Of a stretch of 18,333 nt of DNA, positions 2,069 to 9,370 are shown in pieces. Each line of letters begins with the position of its first letter. The first letter of the stretch is position 1. The translations under genes were made by a program, and so were the position numbers. This DNA is from a virus (lineage: Duplodnaviria; Heunggongvirae; Uroviricota; Caudoviricetes). The notes below the pieces were generated by a model. The model did no database searches, was not told the DNA's origin, and was given only the letters and a program-made list of their open reading frames with translations. The stretch is taken from IMG/VR virus record IMGVR_UViG_2778261506_000010. The stretch is one strand, 5' to 3'.

Positions 2069-3544
2069 TTGAAAGAATATTTAGATATGAATACATCTCA
2101 TGTAAGAGTTGTTACTCATATGTGTGGGTTCCTGGTTTGGCTCTATAGTCTTTCAATGTTGCCACCAATGGTTGTAGCATTGTTTTATAAAGAAAAAAGC
2201 CTGTTCGTTTTCTTTATAACTTTCGTTATATTTTTTTGCATTGGTGGCGGAGCGTGGTATACAACTAAGAAATCTGGCATTCAATTACGTACCCGTGATG
2301 GGTTTATTATAATTGTAATGTTTTGGATTTTGTTTTCTGTTATTAGTGCATTCCCTTTATGGATTGACTCAGAACTTAATTTAACGTTCATTGATGCTCT
2401 GTTTGAAGGGGTTTCTGGAATAACAACAACAGGAGCAACTGTAATTGATGATGTTAGTTCATTACCTCGGGCATATTTGTACTATCGGTCACAGTTAAAT
2501 TTTATAGGTGGTTTAGGAGTTATTGTTCTGGCGGTTGCTGTATTGCCATTATTGGGTATTGGTGGTACAAAGCTTTATCAGTCAGAAATGCCGGGGCCAT
2601 TTAAGGATGACAAACTCACTCCCCGCCTGGCCGATACGTCACGGACACTGTGGATAACTTATTCTTTATTAGGTATTGCTTGTATTGTCTGTTATAGACT
2701 TGCAGGAATGCCTTTGTTTGATGCTATTTGTCACGGGATTTCCACAGTTTCGCTTGGTGGTTTCTCAACTCATAGCGAGAGTATCGGATATTTTAATAAC
2801 TATTTGGTTGAGCTGGTGGCTGGTTCTTTTTCCCTGCTATCGGCTTTCAACTTCACTCTTTGGTATATTGTTATTAGCAGGAAAACGATAAAACCTTTAA
2901 TCAGAGATATTGAACTTCGTTTCTTTCTGTTAATAGCCTTAGGGGTGATCATTGTTACCTCTTTCCAGGTCTGGCATATAGGTATGTATGACTTGCATGG
3001 AAGTTTTATTCATTCGTTTTTTCTTGCCAGCTCCATGCTCACTGATAATGGTTTAGCTACGCAGGATTATGCAAACTGGCCCACGCACACGATAGTGTTT
3101 TTGCTGTCGTCAAGTTTCTTTGGGGGATGTATAGGTTCAACTTGTGGTGGAATTAAGTCACTTCGATTTCTTATACTTTTCAAACAAAGCAAACACGAGA
3201 TAAATCAGCTTTCTCATCCCAGAGCGTTGTTGAGTGTAAATGTAGGAGGGAAGATAGTTACAGATCGTGTAATGAGGTCTGTATGGAGTTTCTTTTTTCT
3301 TTATACTCTCTTCACGGTGTTTTTTATACTGGTGTTAAATGGTATGGGATATGATTTTCTTACATCATTTGCAACAGTGGCTGCATGTATTAATAATATG
3401 GGATTAGGTTTTGGGGCTACTGCATCGTCATTCGGAGTGCTTAATGACATTGCAAAATATTTAATGTGCATAGCTATGATTCTTGGTCGCCTTGAAATTT
3501 ATCCTGTTATTATATTGTTTTCAGGTTTTTTTTGGCGCTCCTAA
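2069..3544 (+). CDS. trkG: TrkH/TrkG-family potassium uptake membrane protein (Rac prophage trkG-like)
   Basis: 491-aa polytopic membrane protein with TrkH-family hallmarks (...FEGVSGITTTGATV..., ...LPLLGIGGTKLYQSEMPGPFKDDKLTPR..., ...GGCIGSTCGGIKSLRFLILFKQ..., ...ILGRLEIYPVIILF...). Very AT-rich compared with flanking phage genes. Start is TTG 2069 (SD-like AAGGTGG 6 nt upstream) or ATG 2087 (MNTSHVRVV...). Confidence 0.9.
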   Translation: MKEYLDMNTSHVRVVTHMCGFLVWLYSLSMLPPMVVALFYKEKSLFVFFITFVIFFCIGGGAWYTTKKSGIQLRTRDGFIIIVMFWILFSVISAFPLWIDSELNLTFIDALFEGVSGITTTGATVIDDVSSLPRAYLYYRSQLNFIGGLGVIVLAVAVLPLLGIGGTKLYQSEMPGPFKDDKLTPRLADTSRTLWITYSLLGIACIVCYRLAGMPLFDAICHGISTVSLGGFSTHSESIGYFNNYLVELVAGSFSLLSAFNFTLWYIVISRKTIKPLIRDIELRFFLLIALGVIIVTSFQVWHIGMYDLHGSFIHSFFLASSMLTDNGLATQDYANWPTHTIVFLLSSSFFGGCIGSTCGGIKSLRFLILFKQSKHEINQLSHPRALLSVNVGGKIVTDRVMRSVWSFFFLYTLFTVFFILVLNGMGYDFLTSFATVAACINNMGLGFGATASSFGVLNDIAKYLMCIAMILGRLEIYPVIILFSGFFWRS

Positions 3545-3681: not shown

Positions 3682-4470
3682 ATGAGCGAGAAATTAAAGA
3701 TAGTCTATCGCCCATTACAAGAATTGTCACCGTATGCGCACAACGCCAGGACGCACAGTACTGAGCAGGTGGCACAACTGGTAGAAAGTATTAAGCAATT
3801 CGGCTGGACTAATCCGGTGCTGATTGACGAAAAGGGCGAAATTATTGCGGGTCACGGTCGTGTTATGGCGGCTGAAATGCTCAAAATGGATTCTGTTCCG
3901 GTCATTGTTCTGTCTGGCCTGACGGATGAGCAGAAAAAGGCGTACCGCCTGGCAGATAATCGCCTACCGATGAATGCTGGCTGGGATGAAGATCTGTTGC
4001 GGATGGAGCTGTCGGACCTAATCAATGCTGATTTTGATGTCTCCCTGACAGGCTTCGGCCCGACAGAAATTGATGAACTGTTGACGGATGTTTTGCCCGG
4101 TACAGGAAATAAGGAGGAGCCGTATACGACGAAAATTGATACGCCTGTTTATGAGCCGTCGGGCGGTAAACCGGATATCAGTGAACTGTACGACGATACG
4201 AAAACTCAGGAGCTGATCAGCCGGATACGTTCGGCGTCCCTTGAGCCTGATATTGAGAAATTCCTCCTGTGTGCGGCAGAACGTCACACGGTGTTTAATT
4301 TCAGCAGAATTGCGGACTATTACGCTCATGCCCCCGCTGAAATTCAGTGCCTTTTCGAGGAGTCGGCGCTGGTGATCATTGATTATCAGCAGGCTATTGA
4401 AAATGGATTTGTCCGAATGACGCAGCGCATGGTGGCGATCATGCATAGCGGGGAGGAGGAATATGCGTGA
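3682..4470 (+). CDS. ParB-like nuclease (ParB N-terminal/sulfiredoxin-like) domain protein, ynaK-like
   Basis: 262-aa ORF. N-terminal region resembles the ParB N-domain (...YRPLQELSPYAHNARTHSTEQVAQLVESIKQFGWTNPVLIDEKGEIIAGHGRVMAA...). C-terminal half is acidic with no obvious known domain. Confidence 0.7.
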   Translation: MSEKLKIVYRPLQELSPYAHNARTHSTEQVAQLVESIKQFGWTNPVLIDEKGEIIAGHGRVMAAEMLKMDSVPVIVLSGLTDEQKKAYRLADNRLPMNAGWDEDLLRMELSDLINADFDVSLTGFGPTEIDELLTDVLPGTGNKEEPYTTKIDTPVYEPSGGKPDISELYDDTKTQELISRIRSASLEPDIEKFLLCAAERHTVFNFSRIADYYAHAPAEIQCLFEESALVIIDYQQAIENGFVRMTQRMVAIMHSGEEEYA

Positions 4471-5326
4471 TGATTTTTGCGCCTTTATTCTGACTCACGG
4501 GCGACCGGACAAAGTTCTGACTTACCGGACGTTGCGTCGTGCTGGCTATACCGGGAAAATTTTTATCGTTGTTGATGATGAAGATAAGACACGGCATCAG
4601 TACATGGCTGAATTTGGTGAACAGGTGCTGGTATTTTCCAAAGCAGATATTGCCAGTCGTTTTGACGAAGCCGATAATTTTGGTGACCGCCGCTCAATTT
4701 TTTACGCCCGTAATGCCTGTTTCGACCTGGCAAAACTGGTCGGGTGTAAATACTTCATTCAGCTCGATGATGATTATCACGAGTTCCAGTTTCGGGTGGA
4801 TCGCAACTATGACCAGGCCTATTTCCCGATAAGGAAACTGGATGCGATCCTTTCTGAAATGCTGGCGTATTACGAATCAATACCCGCGCTTTCCATCGCT
4901 ATGTCGCAGGGCGGGGATTTTCTTGGTGACAATGGCGGCCATGCTTCGTGGGTGAAACGCAAGGCAATGAACAGCTTTATCTGTTCGGTTGATCGACCGT
5001 TCTCATTCATGGGGCGCATTAACGAGGATGTGAATACGTACACGAATCTCGGTCGCCGTGGTGAATTGTTTATGACGATCGGTGCTGTCCAGTTAGGGCA
5101 GAAACAGACGCAGAAAAACAGCGGCGGAATGACCGAGCTGTATCTGGATTCCGGGACCTACGTTAAAAGTTTTTATTCCGTCATGTATGCGCCGTCGTGC
5201 GTAAAAATCTCACTGATGGGCGCCAGCCATAAACGCATTCACCATCAGGTCACCTGGAACAACGCTGCAGTAAAAATCCTTCACGAAAAATACAGGAAGA
5301 AGACACCCTGCATATTAATGGGGTGA
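4463..5326 (+). CDS. hypothetical protein, GT-A-fold (family 2-like) putative glycosyltransferase, ydaY-like
   Basis: 287-aa ORF with SD GGAGGAGG 5 nt upstream; start overlaps the ParB-like stop (ATGCGTGA), indicating translational coupling. Motif layout resembles GT2 enzymes: FILTHGRPD (cf. IPTYNRP), IFIVVDDED (cf. IVVDDGS), FYARNACFDLAKLVGCKYFIQLDDDY (DxD region). No obvious TM helices. Confidence 0.75.
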   Translation: MRDDFCAFILTHGRPDKVLTYRTLRRAGYTGKIFIVVDDEDKTRHQYMAEFGEQVLVFSKADIASRFDEADNFGDRRSIFYARNACFDLAKLVGCKYFIQLDDDYHEFQFRVDRNYDQAYFPIRKLDAILSEMLAYYESIPALSIAMSQGGDFLGDNGGHASWVKRKAMNSFICSVDRPFSFMGRINEDVNTYTNLGRRGELFMTIGAVQLGQKQTQKNSGGMTELYLDSGTYVKSFYSVMYAPSCVKISLMGASHKRIHHQVTWNNAAVKILHEKYRKKTPCILMG

Positions 5327-5329
5327 CAA

Positions 5330-5581
5330 ATGATTCCGTATTCGAAAGTCGAGTCTCTGGCAGCGTGCCGGATGACTGCACAACAAATCGCTGACGTACT
5401 GGATGTTGATCTGAACCGACTGAAAGAAAATCGGGAAGCAATGACAAATTTTTACGCGTCCATCCGTAAGGGCAGAGCGAAAGGTGAAGCCGAGCTACGG
5501 GCGGCATTGTTTAAGCTTGCCAGAAAAGGGGATGCCTTTGCCCTGCGCGAACTACTCAGGGTGGATAAAAATCAGGACTAA
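5330..5581 (+). CDS. small hypothetical protein (83 aa), possible HTH DNA-binding or terminase-associated protein
   Basis: ORF sits tightly between the GT-A-like gene (stop 5326) and terminase small subunit (start 5585). Putative HTH segment MTAQQIADVLDVDLNRLKEN. Confidence 0.55.
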   Translation: MIPYSKVESLAACRMTAQQIADVLDVDLNRLKENREAMTNFYASIRKGRAKGEAELRAALFKLARKGDAFALRELLRVDKNQD

Positions 5582-5584
5582 CTG

Positions 5585-6679
5585 ATGAGCAGACCGGACT
5601 GGGGGGCGTTGCAGCAGGAGTATATTGCTGAATACACCCGCTCCGGTATATCTCCGGTGGCATGGTGTGAAGCAAGGGGACTGAATTACGCAACAGCCCG
5701 TCGTTACATCAAAAAACCTCCGAAAAATGCGCAGACAGAAATGCGCAAAACTGCGCAAAAAAGTGCGCAGAAAAAATCTGCGCAGACTGCACAAAAGCGG
5801 AACGGAAAATCTCAGGAAAAAAAGCCAGTATCCGATGCGTACCTGAATGAGGGCGATGCGGAAGAAATTTCGTTCTGTCCCGATGAATTCGGCGTTTCTG
5901 ACCAGCAGGCGAAATTCGCAATGCTGGTTGCCCAGGGGAAAAAACTCGTTGAGGCATATCGCCTGGCAGGATACGAGTCAGAGGGGAATGCGGCCTACGT
6001 AACCGCCAGCCAGCTCCTAAGAAATCCTAAGGTTTTTCGTGCTATCAGCTACTTCCGCAATCAGTACCAGAAACGCTATACCGCAGACCTGGATTTACTG
6101 GTGAGTCAGTTGATGGCCATTGTCCAGGCCGACCCCAATCAGTTGGCACAATTTCGCCGTGTTAACTGCCGTTATTGCTGGGGCGAGAATCATCACTACC
6201 AGTGGCGCGATATAGCAGAATTCGATAAGGCAGCGGCGCAGGCCTCCAGAGATGGCAAACCCGAGCCGGAATATGGTGGCCTTGGCTTTGTTGATAACGC
6301 CATACCCAATCCGGACTGCCCGAAGTGCTGCGGTGAGGGAACGGGGCAGCTTTATATGGCTGATACCACTCTGCTTGATGGGGATGCGCGGCAATTATAT
6401 GCAGGGGCAAAGCTCGGAAAATTTGGTGTTGAGATCCTGCTGGAGGATAAGGCTGCCGCCCGGCGTGAATTGTTGCGTTTGCTTGCTGCTGGCGGGGCTT
6501 TATGTGCAGATAAGCGGCTACAGGAACTGGAAATTGAACGGCGCAGAATGGAAAACCAGAAGCTGCGCAAAGAGATCGAAACGGTGGAGGATAATGAACA
6601 TCCCCAACCTGTTGCGATCAATATTAATGTGGTTGATGCCAGAGTAAGGAGTGATGAAGATGATCTCTCCGACGCTTAA
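5585..6679 (+). CDS. terminase small subunit (Terminase_2-like core with N-terminal HTH, Cys4 zinc ribbon and C-terminal coiled coil)
   Basis: 364-aa ORF immediately upstream of the large terminase. Motif ...QQAKFAMLVAQGKKLVEAYRLAGYESEGNAAYVTASQLLRNPKVFRAI... matches the TerS family pattern. CxxC...CxxCC at 6167-6331. Confidence 0.7.
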   Translation: MSRPDWGALQQEYIAEYTRSGISPVAWCEARGLNYATARRYIKKPPKNAQTEMRKTAQKSAQKKSAQTAQKRNGKSQEKKPVSDAYLNEGDAEEISFCPDEFGVSDQQAKFAMLVAQGKKLVEAYRLAGYESEGNAAYVTASQLLRNPKVFRAISYFRNQYQKRYTADLDLLVSQLMAIVQADPNQLAQFRRVNCRYCWGENHHYQWRDIAEFDKAAAQASRDGKPEPEYGGLGFVDNAIPNPDCPKCCGEGTGQLYMADTTLLDGDARQLYAGAKLGKFGVEILLEDKAAARRELLRLLAAGGALCADKRLQELEIERRRMENQKLRKEIETVEDNEHPQPVAININVVDARVRSDEDDLSDA

Positions 6680-7961
6680 TGTGCCTCAGGCGCGATTTCT
6701 TTCAATGCCCCACAAATTTAAAGCCTATGTCGCTGGTTTTGGCTCGGGTAAAACATGGATTGGGTGTGGTGGCATATGCAAGGGGATTTGGGAACATCCT
6801 GGTATAAATCAGGGATATTTTGCGCCAACGTATCCCCAAATTCGCGATATTTTTTACCCTACAGTGGAAGAAGTTGCTGCTGACTGGGGATTGAATGTAA
6901 AAATTAATGAGGGAAATAAAGAGGTTCATTTTTATTACGGACGTCAGTATCGGGGAACCACTATCTGCAGATCGATGGAGAAGCCGCAAACGATCGTCGG
7001 TTTCAAAATTGGTAATGCGCTGGTGGATGAACTGGACATTTTGCCGAAGGAAAAAGCCAGAACAGCGTGGCGCAAGATAATTGCGCGTATGCGTTATAAG
7101 GTTGATGGACTTCGCAACGGTATTGACGTTACAACCACGCCGGAAGGATTCAAATTTGTCTACGAGCAGTTTGTTAAAGCCGTGCGTGAAAAAACAGAGC
7201 TGGCCTCACTGTATGGTCTGGTGCAGGCATCTACTTTCGATAATGAAAAGAACCTGCCAGCAGATTACATTCCTTCGCTTCTTGAGTCATACCCTCCAGA
7301 GCTGATTAAAGCCTATCTTCGAGGACAGTTTACTAACCTGACAAGTGGTACTGTTTACCATCAGTTTGACCGGAAACTGAATAATTGCGAAGAAGTGGAG
7401 CAGCCAGGGGAGCCGATTTATATTGGGATGGATTTTAACGTTGGAAAGATGGCGGGGGTCGTCCATGTACTGCGTTTGGGGCTTCCATGTGCGGTAACTG
7501 AAATCATCAATGCCTACGATACACCGGATATGATCCGCATCATTAAAGAACGCTTCTGGCTGTATGACGGGAATGATTACCGGAAAGTGAGGGAGATTTA
7601 TATTTATCCAGATGCTTCCGGAGATTCCAGAAAATCAAGTAACGCAAGTACGACGGATATAGCCCAGCTTAAGCAGGCTGGTTTTAACGTTGTGGTGAAC
7701 AGCTCGAACCCGCCAGTAAAAGATCGCGTTAACTCAATGAATGCAATGTTCTGCAATGCCAATGGCGAACGTCGCTATAAAGTTAATGTGAAGCGTTGTC
7801 CGGTATATGCCGAATCTCTGGAGCAACAGGTCTGGGATGATAAGGGGGAGCCTGATAAAAAATCAGGCAACGATCACCCGAATGATGCCGGAGGCTATTT
7901 CATCGTTAAGCAATTCCCTATTATCAAACCGACCGGAAGAGTCACATCACTTCGGATTTAA
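6660..7961 (+). CDS. terminase large subunit (ATPase/nuclease)
   Basis: Walker A-like motif AGFGSGKTW near the N-terminus; acidic nuclease-like C-terminal motifs (IYIGMDFN..., ...GNDHPNDAGGY). SD AAGGA at 6646-6650 favours ATG 6660; the track start 6651 is GTG. Overlaps the end of the small subunit gene. Confidence 0.85.
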   Translation: MISPTLNVPQARFLSMPHKFKAYVAGFGSGKTWIGCGGICKGIWEHPGINQGYFAPTYPQIRDIFYPTVEEVAADWGLNVKINEGNKEVHFYYGRQYRGTTICRSMEKPQTIVGFKIGNALVDELDILPKEKARTAWRKIIARMRYKVDGLRNGIDVTTTPEGFKFVYEQFVKAVREKTELASLYGLVQASTFDNEKNLPADYIPSLLESYPPELIKAYLRGQFTNLTSGTVYHQFDRKLNNCEEVEQPGEPIYIGMDFNVGKMAGVVHVLRLGLPCAVTEIINAYDTPDMIRIIKERFWLYDGNDYRKVREIYIYPDASGDSRKSSNASTTDIAQLKQAGFNVVVNSSNPPVKDRVNSMNAMFCNANGERRYKVNVKRCPVYAESLEQQVWDDKGEPDKKSGNDHPNDAGGYFIVKQFPIIKPTGRVTSLRI

Positions 7962-7963
7962 TT

Positions 7964-9370
7964 ATGGCTGATATATCAACACCCAACCTCGACTATAACG
8001 ATATGCTGGAGGCGTGGGATATTAACGACGCACTGATGGGCGGTACGCTTGAAATGCGCAGGCAGGGGGAAAATTATCTCCCAAAATGGCCTAACGAAGA
8101 TGAAGACGCTTATAAAAAACGCCTGTCTGTGGCTACGCTACTTCCTGTGTATGAAGAAAGCATTAAGCAAAATATTGGACGCATATTTGCAGAGCCGACA
8201 GTATTGAGTGAGGAAACGCCGGAAAAAATCAGGGAATATGCAGAAAATATCGACATGGAGGGGAGCCGACTGGATGTGTGGGCGCAGCAATTTTTCAGCC
8301 TCGCATTTCAGTATGGTGTGGCACATGCGCTGGTGGACTATCCACGAACGGATATGAAGGAGATCCGGACAAAAGCCGATGAAAATGCGGCTGGTGGTCG
8401 CCCATACGTTACGATGCTGAATCCACGCCAGGTTATTGGATGGAAATCGAAAGTTGAAAAAGGGAAAGTTGTTCTTACTGATTTGCGTATAAAAGAAGTC
8501 ATCATTGTTGATGGTGATGATTTCGTGCAGAAGAAGGTGGAGCAGATCCGCCATATTATGCCCCGTTGCGTTGAAATTTATCGACGCAGCGAAGGTACTA
8601 ATGGCGAATCTGTCTGGACGCTTCACGAGTCATGGAATACCAGCCGTGATGATATTCCTCTGGTAACACTGTATACGAAGAAAACAGGGTTTATGCGTGG
8701 TACACCGCCATTGCTTAATCTTGGCTTGCTGAATATCAAGCACTGGCAAAGCCAGAGCGAGCAGGACAATATTCTTCATGTTGCCCGCGTCCCATTGCTG
8801 GTGGCCTACGGGCTGGACAGGAATGAAGAACTGACGGTTGGTGCATCCACCGCTACGATTTTTGAGGACAGAACAAAAAATGGCCTCGAATATGTTGAAC
8901 ATAGTGGGGCAGCGATAGAATCTGGCGAAACATCACTGGAGAAGCTGGAAAATCAGATGCGTCATGCCGGCGCTAAACTTCTGCGGGCTGAAAATACATC
9001 CACCAAATCTGTTGATCAGACTAATGAAGAGCGGATGCAGGAAAACTCGCCGCTTTATACAATGGCGAACTCCCTCGAAGATGCCCTCGATAATATTCTC
9101 CAGATAATGGCGGAATGGATCGGAGAGAGTTGCGGCGGCAATGTGGATGTGCGCACTGAACTGGATGTATCTGCCCAGGTGTTTGACTCATCCTCCGCGC
9201 TGGCTGTTCAGTCATTGCGTCAGGGCGGTGATATACGTCAGATTGATGCGGTTCGGGTGTTGCAGGCGTTGAAATTTATCGATCAGGATTCCCGTCCAGA
9301 GGAAGTGATCGATGAATTAAAAAATCAGAGTGTAATGCTGATGGAAATCAATGATGCAAACCGTGAATGA
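7964..9370 (+). CDS. portal protein (putative)
   Basis: 468-aa ORF directly after the large terminase in the canonical order; size and position fit a portal. Confidence 0.65.
   Translation: MADISTPNLDYNDMLEAWDINDALMGGTLEMRRQGENYLPKWPNEDEDAYKKRLSVATLLPVYEESIKQNIGRIFAEPTVLSEETPEKIREYAENIDMEGSRLDVWAQQFFSLAFQYGVAHALVDYPRTDMKEIRTKADENAAGGRPYVTMLNPRQVIGWKSKVEKGKVVLTDLRIKEVIIVDGDDFVQKKVEQIRHIMPRCVEIYRRSEGTNGESVWTLHESWNTSRDDIPLVTLYTKKTGFMRGTPPLLNLGLLNIKHWQSQSEQDNILHVARVPLLVAYGLDRNEELTVGASTATIFEDRTKNGLEYVEHSGAAIESGETSLEKLENQMRHAGAKLLRAENTSTKSVDQTNEERMQENSPLYTMANSLEDALDNILQIMAEWIGESCGGNVDVRTELDVSAQVFDSSSALAVQSLRQGGDIRQIDAVRVLQALKFIDQDSRPEEVIDELKNQSVMLMEINDANRE

Follow-up and report, generated by a model that had tools for sequence, protein, structure and literature searches.

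The stretch of DNA analysed here, in the following called the window, comprises 18,333 nucleotides (nt) of a tailed phage (IMG/VR record IMGVR_UViG_2778261506_000010) and belongs to a Rac-like lambdoid prophage of Escherichia coli. Its gene for the small terminase subunit TerS (5585..6679, plus strand, 364 amino acids) contains an array of TGCGCA hexamers at 5728..5793 (strand not applicable), which follows the segment coding for an N-terminal helix-turn-helix (HTH) domain. The array is non-random, constrained at the level of the DNA and strictly associated with this HTH domain; that it is a functional DNA element is strongly supported. We regard it as the probable recognition site for packaging (pac) of a presumably headful-packaging Rac-like prophage, with the hexamers as the proposed sites of the TerS HTH domain. 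A sequence-only reading of the window had already named the array as a candidate pac site. All comparative tests that we ran agree with this proposal, and it gains further support from the homology of the HTH domain to PacA of phage P1, whose pac site is proven.

The hexamer array and its constraint at the DNA level

Five perfect TGCGCA hexamers and one degenerate copy, TGCACA, make up the array, and their start-to-start spacings are 14, 10, 12, 15 and 9 bp. A re-scan found the positions and spacings given by the sequence-only reading all exact; its statement that an A-rich tract lies 3' of each hexamer holds for four of the six, whereas the sequence after hexamers 1 and 5 is GAC. The extended site is approximately AAA(C)TGCGCA(R)A. 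Hexamer 1 (5728..5733) is read in the frame xxT GCG CAx (peptide NAQ) and is invariant in 38 distinct haplotypes of close relatives. Hexamer 2 (5742..5747) is read as ATG CGC AAA, i.e. in the frame xTG CGC Axx (MRK), and has the variants TGTGCA and TGCGTA in relatives; the other hexamers are read as xxT GCG CAR (xAQ). No base substitutions occur among the close haplotypes in hexamer 3 (5752..5757, TAQ), hexamer 4 (5764..5769, SAQ) is changed to TGCGCG in one sub-lineage, and hexamer 5 (5779..5784, SAQ) is nearly invariant. The degenerate hexamer 6 (5788..5793) is a perfect TGCGCA in many relatives. Within terS, the array stretch encodes NAQTEMRKTAQKSAQKKSAQTAQKR.

TGCGCA is not enriched in the window as a whole (11 copies versus a shuffle mean of 7.7). 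Five of these 11 copies are packed into 57 bp; a Poisson estimate puts the chance of such clustering at about 7e-7, and in 300 Markov-1 simulations TGCGCA never occurred more than twice in 60 bp. Any other hexamer of the window reaches at most three non-overlapping copies per 60 bp; the TGCGCA array is the densest hexamer cluster of the window. For a synonymous null model, the peptide was kept fixed and the codons were redrawn from the window's own codon usage: a mean of 0.68 hexamers is expected for the array, compared with five observed (P=3e-5). Elsewhere in the genes of the window, one of 24 xAQ tripeptides is spelled TGCGCA.

Relatives were collected from several enterobacterial genera and Aeromonas (331 loci, yielding 200 unique N-termini). 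In the 38 close haplotypes, 15% of the positions vary in the HTH-coding segment and 17% in the hexamers, compared with 37% in the array spacers and 53% in the next 150 nt of the linker downstream of the array. The residue preceding AQ changes among relatives (S, T, P, F, N), while the third base of its codon remains T; at hexamer 5, for example, S, T, P or F is found with the T kept at the third codon position. Full-length TerS homologues with 36-42% amino acid identity, which stem from Klebsiella, Yersinia, Providencia, Aeromonas and other E. coli phages, carry an array at the same place, and the peptide as well as the length of their linkers differ. From the divergent relatives we chose 32 representatives with less than 75% nucleotide identity in the array stretch. 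For 29 of these, 3-9 hexamers are observed versus 0.2-0.9 under the synonymous null (P<=2e-3). The other three are a Shiga toxin (Stx) phage, phage D6, which has no array, and one frameshifted copy, which was left unscored. In the Stx phage, four GATCAT are found versus 1.98 expected; this array is non-significant (P=0.06) because its IDH peptide nearly forces the hexamer. Across the 200 unique sequences, TGCGCA is read 578 times as xAQ or xAH, 132 times as [MLV]R[KTNSI] and 36 times as CA, and 13 different residues precede AQ or AH. The sequence-only reading had assumed that a linker between the N-terminal HTH and the core tolerates the constraint on the DNA, and the usage of frames, the synonymous null and the conservation of hexamers relative to spacers bear this out. 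The comparison with related prophages, to which it had also pointed, leads to the same result: the arrays are kept at the same place after the HTH, and the hexamers vary less than the spacers.

The N-terminal HTH domain and its pairing with the hexamers

The N-terminal domain of TerS (amino acids 1-44, coded by 5585..5716 on the plus strand) was delineated by means of AlphaFold and profile matches. The AlphaFold model is a three-helix HTH with helices at residues 6-20, 24-31 and 35-41, the last of which has the sequence YATARRY; confidence values (pLDDT) are 79-88 over residues 1-40, and the prediction is confident even from a single sequence. A full-length single-sequence model is confident for residues 1-40 only, the linker being of low confidence. 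A Foldseek search with the N-terminal model gave weak matches (E>=0.6) to generic HTH domains throughout (DeoR, IS21 IstA, MntR), which supports no more than the assignment as an HTH, and no sequence relative was found in the PDB.

The relationship to P1 was detected by comparing profiles. An alignment of 13 sequences of the domain matched the N-termini of P1 and D6 PacA in hhalign with a probability of 97.7% and an E-value of 1.9e-12 over 44 columns. TerS of the window matches the N-terminus of phrog_1711 with E 1.4e-4, and TerS homologues do so with values down to 7e-7; phrog_1711 is the PacA family, as P1 PacA matches it at E 4e-202. Because a direct BLASTP of TerS against P1 PacA is only marginal (E 0.099), the claim of homology rests on the profile methods. 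According to these, the N-terminal HTH of TerS and the N-terminus of P1 PacA are homologues. The shared part is the N-terminal domain only and does not include the PacA body. As a Terminase_2 core makes up the remainder of the protein, TerS is a chimera, which carries a PacA-type HTH on a different body.

In the window, the array occupies nt 144-209 of the gene and helix 3 ends at nt 129-132. Among the 200 unique relatives, the array always starts 8-17 nt past the end of helix 3, i.e. of the conserved domain of about 44 residues. The type of hexamer follows the type of helix 3. All 135 sequences with a helix of the form xA-R-RY (R class) possess at least three TGCGCA (mean 5.2-6.7) and zero TGCGAA in the next 150 nt. 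All 60 sequences with xA-K-RY (K class) possess at least two TGCGAA and almost no TGCGCA. On average, K-class arrays additionally contain two copies of TTCGCA, the reverse complement of TGCGAA, which often forms with it the palindrome TGCGAATTCGCA. The two classes are not separated by the remainder of the domain: over residues 1-33, identity is 0.70 between and 0.69 within classes, three identical sequences of residues 1-33 were found with both helix types, and Fitch parsimony on a tree of this segment requires at least 12 switches of helix class. Moreover, each class is present on three unrelated TerS core types. Such a covariation is the pattern expected of a protein and its binding site. 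It is suggestive and not decisive, because the first hexamer lies as close as 8-17 nt to the end of helix 3 and linked haplotype blocks would give the same pattern.

The hexamers of the two classes differ at position 5 (C:G versus A:T), which changes together with Arg39/Lys39. Arginine-guanine is the commonest specific contact in HTH-DNA complexes; it is a speculation that such a contact links residue 39 to the base at position 5. Mixed arrays were observed in three IMG/VR contigs (L178, L180, L191), where at gene nt ~130-290 a Lys-type helix 3 is followed by three to four TGCGAA/TTCGCA and then, distally, by three to four TGCGCA. These could be recombinants within the array or sites of dual specificity.

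In a reverse test, viral contigs were scanned for three TGCGCA 1-9 nt apart without regard to genes. At least 120 stretches were found; among the matches listed, 76 lie at most 120 nt downstream of a PacA-like HTH, two more represent the same gene cut by the end of the contig, and the remainder consists mostly of tandem coding repeats within unrelated genes on GC-rich contigs. Four IMG/VR contigs (L338, L437, L417, L448) encode proteins with a more distant N-terminal HTH (e.g. ...DWEKIELDYRAGIKSLRQIASEHDIAESGIRRRAK...), followed by three clustered TGCGCA; these sequences hint that the layout of an HTH and a subsequent array may reach beyond the PacA-like family. A contig scan of genomes gave two near-identical loci only. 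A deletion is annotated in phage Rac-SA53 (L002, KU052037; 2912-3070) as 'gpOterS fusion by deletion' and has its junction inside the array. The fusion is devoid of the N-terminal HTH; of the five hexamers that remain, three carry mutations (TTCGCA, TGCGCT, TGCCCA). Loss of the HTH together with decay of the hexamers fits a pairing of HTH and array, although this single case is an anecdote.

Precedents, rival explanations and proposed mechanism

The pac site of P1 spans about 161 bp and contains seven TGATCA/G repeats, which are bound by pacase (PMC10028697; see also PMC11260489), and a synonymous mutation of these hexamer repeats lowered packaging about 9-fold (PMC10028697). The genome annotation of P1 places the pac cleavage sites inside pacA. 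In this gene, the HTH-coding part is closely followed by four TGATCA (HEX4; nt 194-233), which have spacings of 7, 12 and 15 and use two reading frames; next come, at nt 256-285, an IHF site and the cuts (cleavage at nt 276-285), and our scan detected four further TGATCA/G copies at nt 324-380, of which the literature counts three as HEX3. As hexamer repeats sit inside pacA, P1 pac is an apt precedent. Like the array studied here, it is located within a small-terminase gene 3' of a homologous N-terminal HTH, and it is likewise composed of multiple palindromic 6-bp repeats, which are irregularly spaced (7-15 bp) and occupy more than one reading frame. There are also differences. The hexamer of the window is TGCGCA, which contains no GATC, so that Dam control of the array does not apply; there is one cluster of five to six hexamers, whereas in P1 groups of four and three flank the cut; and the array begins 14 nt after helix 3, compared with about 70 nt in P1. 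The body of TerS is a Terminase_2 core here and a PacA body in P1. The large subunit TerL of the window belongs to the Terminase_6N/6C families (T4-type in Pfam), and this membership by itself is no proof of headful packaging.

The sequence-only reading had invoked P22 and SPP1 as examples of phased repeats, and here it was imprecise: the pac site of P22 consists of one asymmetric stretch of some 22 bp and not of phased repeats. SPP1 pac is located at the 5' end of gene 1, and the pacL-pacC-pacR boxes of SPP1/SF6 differ in sequence and layout. P22 and SPP1/SF6 are headful phages with a recognition site in or at the small-terminase gene; neither P22 nor SPP1 is known to possess an additional PacA-like HTH or hexamers that are palindromic. 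Apart from the Terminase_2 core, which they share, P22 and SPP1 were compared by description only. In lambda, the repeats R1-R3 of cosB are bound by the winged HTH of gpNu1, and there is an IHF site, I1. Common to lambda and the system described here are short repeated sites beside the terminase genes, which are read by an N-terminal HTH of the small terminase; lambda differs by its fixed cohesive ends (cos), by the location of the sites upstream of Nu1, by repeats of about 16 bp and by dependence on IHF. The mapped pac of the E. coli LF82 prophage Gally (bioRxiv 10.1101/2022.10.28.514194) was considered as a guide and was uninformative, as its TerS is an unrelated protein of 140 amino acids. 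In the Stx phage VT2-Sakai (L091, AP000422; 1642-1683), a homologous HTH is followed by four GATCAT at an exact period of 12 bp, coding for the peptide IDHEIDHKTDHEIDH; these repeats are Dam sites, as are the hexamers of P1 pac. A literature search found no paper that ties TGCGCA or TGCGAA repeats to packaging.

The main rival to a pac site is an operator: the HTH would bind the array for autoregulatory or other purposes, e.g. as a roadblock or for translational coupling of terS and terL, and packaging specificity would reside elsewhere, for instance in the Terminase_2 core. All evidence for binding by the HTH serves this explanation equally well; in addition, the site lies inside the gene that it could regulate, and the TerS core has a separate domain of DNA-binding type. 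We nevertheless consider an operator unlikely, since the homologous arrangement in P1 is experimentally a pac site, the module is part of a packaging protein and is found with three or more different terminase cores, and a promoter-like site near the array was not found. Methylation offers another route to a DNA-level role, by which the hexamers would mainly be targets of a methyltransferase or restriction enzyme and act via their methylation state, as GATC does in P1 pac. TGCGCA is the recognition sequence of a type II enzyme (FspI) and contains a GCGC core, there is an analogy to Dam control of P1 pac, and genes resembling ParB and a DNA glycosyltransferase lie just upstream. Against this stands that K-class arrays have TGCGAA, which is without GCGC, at the same position, and that no methyltransferase domain was detected in the window proteins scanned; on these two grounds a methylation target is very unlikely. 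The covariation of the helix-3 residue with the hexamer points to direct reading by the HTH instead.

Two explanations remain. One of them takes the array for an RNA or transcription element, i.e. for hairpins in the mRNA or for serial intrinsic terminators that would act on the minus strand against antisense transcripts. Folding of the RNA of 5715-5805 gives a z-score of -5.3, and the minus strand of 5742-5795 scores as four terminator-like hairpins with a T run after each. Palindromic hexamers separated by A-runs, however, yield hairpins by construction, and we reject this reading because the signal is a by-product of these two features; its probability is very low. The geometry of the hairpins is not conserved, as spacings of 7 (which leaves a loop of 1 nt), 9, 10, 12 and 14 are all common, and in the K-class palindrome TGCGAATTCGCA there is no loop, the T-run being inside the would-be loop. 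Compensatory changes that keep the pairing but not the hexamer were not seen in relatives, and an RNA hairpin predicts neither the use of three frames nor the tracking of hexamer and helix 3. The other explanation reduces the array to a low-complexity coding repeat, in which a 9-12-nt (S/T)AQK unit was propagated by slippage or duplication and the DNA has no function. It can draw on the periods of 10, 12 and 36 reported by Tandem Repeats Finder, on a linker peptide rich in Lys, Ala and Gln, and on copy-number changes that stay in frame among close relatives (+9, -12 and one larger in-frame deletion). It does not account for one hexamer of the window and 168 of 746 in relatives, which are off-frame and encode unrelated peptides (MRK, LRT, VRK, CA), for the retention of hexamers while spacers and peptides diverge, or for hexamer counts that exceed the synonymous null in 29 divergent and independent lineages. 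Nor can a peptide repeat explain that K-class arrays hold an asymmetric hexamer in both orientations (TGCGAA, TTCGCA). Frames, synonymous sites and orientation contradict this explanation, which is largely refuted and to which we assign hardly any weight.

Several points weigh against a pac site that is read by the HTH. Features of P1 pac are missing: there is no GATC in or near the array in the sequence read at 5400-6300, a search for an IHF consensus near the array found none, and no second cluster of hexamers borders a cut region, the next TGCGCA occurring only at 6564. Tandem duplication of a 9-12-nt unit adds to the identical codons within one array. Some common haplotypes hold only four perfect hexamers, from which it follows that individual hexamers are dispensable. 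The covariation of helix 3 and hexamer could be simple linkage, with two old haplotype blocks recombining as units. The Terminase_2 core of TerS has its own DNA-binding region and could be the real reader of pac or contribute to reading. Finally, the literature search gave no terminus or binding data for the group of TGCGCA/TGCGAA phages, and no terminus data for Stx phages, the Yersinia vB_YenM phages or the deposited vB_EcoS relatives.

On balance we favor the pac site, and binding of the array hexamers by the TerS HTH is a likely prediction from the comparisons described above. We infer physical binding by the HTH, a role in the initiation of packaging, the position of the cut and the direction of packaging, which could be connected as follows. 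A TerS oligomer would present several N-terminal HTH domains on flexible tethers rich in Lys, Ala and Gln, and each HTH would read one TGCGCA. Multivalent binding to five to six sites 9-15 bp (about 12 bp) apart would confer specificity for phage DNA, and TerS on the array would nucleate a TerS-TerL complex. TerL would then cut somewhere near the array, and headful packaging would run rightward through terL and the head genes. As the sites lie in the DNA that codes for the tether, the peptide of the tether (xAQ, MRK) would largely be dictated by the DNA signal, and as HTH and sites are adjacent, they would be inherited and exchanged as one cassette.

A pac site that consists of hexamer repeats inside the small-terminase gene and is read by a PacA-type HTH is of a known kind; new are the other hexamer, the lack of Dam and IHF features, the single cluster and the different terminase body. 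To our knowledge, pac sites are experimentally known for a handful of phages and are usually unpredictable from sequence, and the design of P1 pac has so far been regarded as a peculiarity of P1. The array provides a precise pac candidate for an E. coli prophage lineage and for related phages of Klebsiella, Yersinia, Providencia and Aeromonas. If borne out, the array would show where headful packaging, and hence lateral transduction, starts in these lysogens and which way it proceeds, and would extend the design of P1 pac to a broad family. It would also supply a short portable packaging signal for the engineering of transducing particles, for which P1 pac is already used, and a natural switch (Arg/TGCGCA versus Lys/TGCGAA) with which the reading of DNA by the HTH domains of small terminases could be studied. 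A broader proposal, which we make tentatively and which may well fail, is that the array is one case of a widespread, portable cassette of packaging specificity. In this cassette, a PacA-like HTH would lie back to back with the hexamer array that it reads, and the two would move among unrelated terminase cores in phages of several enterobacterial genera and Aeromonas and seemingly in P1 and Stx phages; the cassette would have discrete alleles, namely Arg39/TGCGCA, Lys39/TGCGAA and other helices with GATC-containing hexamers. Should this hold true, the DNA encoding a protein's own tether would be the site which that protein reads, specificity could be reprogrammed by swapping one residue and one base, and in a very large class of prophages the sequence would directly reveal the pac specificity; the lineage described here alone is present in about 17% of complete E. 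coli genomes.

Gene context of the array

The chromosome of E. coli WP8-S18-CRE-02 is 100% identical to the window at 5300-6700, and 906 of the 5,426 complete E. coli genomes contain relatives with 90-95% identity; over the same interval, the copies in strains 042 and H10407 are 94.4% and 94.0% identical. The lysis genes are followed in order by trkG, a ParB-like and a glycosyltransferase-like gene, a small open reading frame (ORF), terS, terL, the portal gene and the head genes. The assignment of terS is based on matches to Terminase_2 and phrog_51: Pfam Terminase_2 (PF03592) matches residues 123-321 with E 1.9e-9 and 38.7 bits, which is above the gathering cut-off of 26.1, and phrog_51 gives a full-length match with E 8.7e-75. 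In the identical E. coli genome, the gene is annotated as 'terminase small subunit'. The protein thus comprises the PacA-like HTH, the linker, the Terminase_2 core and a C-terminal helix or tail. The core (5951..6547, plus strand) was delimited by the Pfam match, which is split by a Cys-rich insertion (window ~6165-6340, residues ~195-250; CRYCWGENHHYQW ... NPDCPKCCGEG). By its sequence, this insertion looks like a zinc ribbon within the TerS core.

The gene of TerL (6660..7961, plus strand; Terminase_6N and an RNaseH-like nuclease) overlaps the end of terS; its product is presumed to be the cutter and motor recruited by TerS. The portal gene (DUF4055, phrog_145; 7964-9370) is next after terL. 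Directly upstream of terS, an ORF of 83 amino acids (5330-5581, plus strand) matches positions 145-218 of the 319 positions of phrog_309 with E 2.5e-22, i.e. the middle part of another small-terminase family, and no Pfam or NCBIfam match was found for it. It could be what is left of a terS that was displaced, or a small accessory factor of packaging with an HTH.

Further upstream, a gene with a ParB_N domain (3682-4470, plus strand) overlaps the start of a gene (4463-5326, plus strand) whose product is a homologue of the TET-associated glycosyltransferase (PF20691, 'GREB1-related') and which immediately precedes the packaging genes. The annotation of the identical E. coli genome lists this homologue as a frameshifted pseudogene. 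The pair (3682-5326) may be a module for DNA modification. Between the lysis and the packaging genes lies the potassium transporter gene trkG (2069-3544, plus strand), a hallmark of Rac-type prophages; the trkG-bearing prophage described here retains a full terminase and head module.

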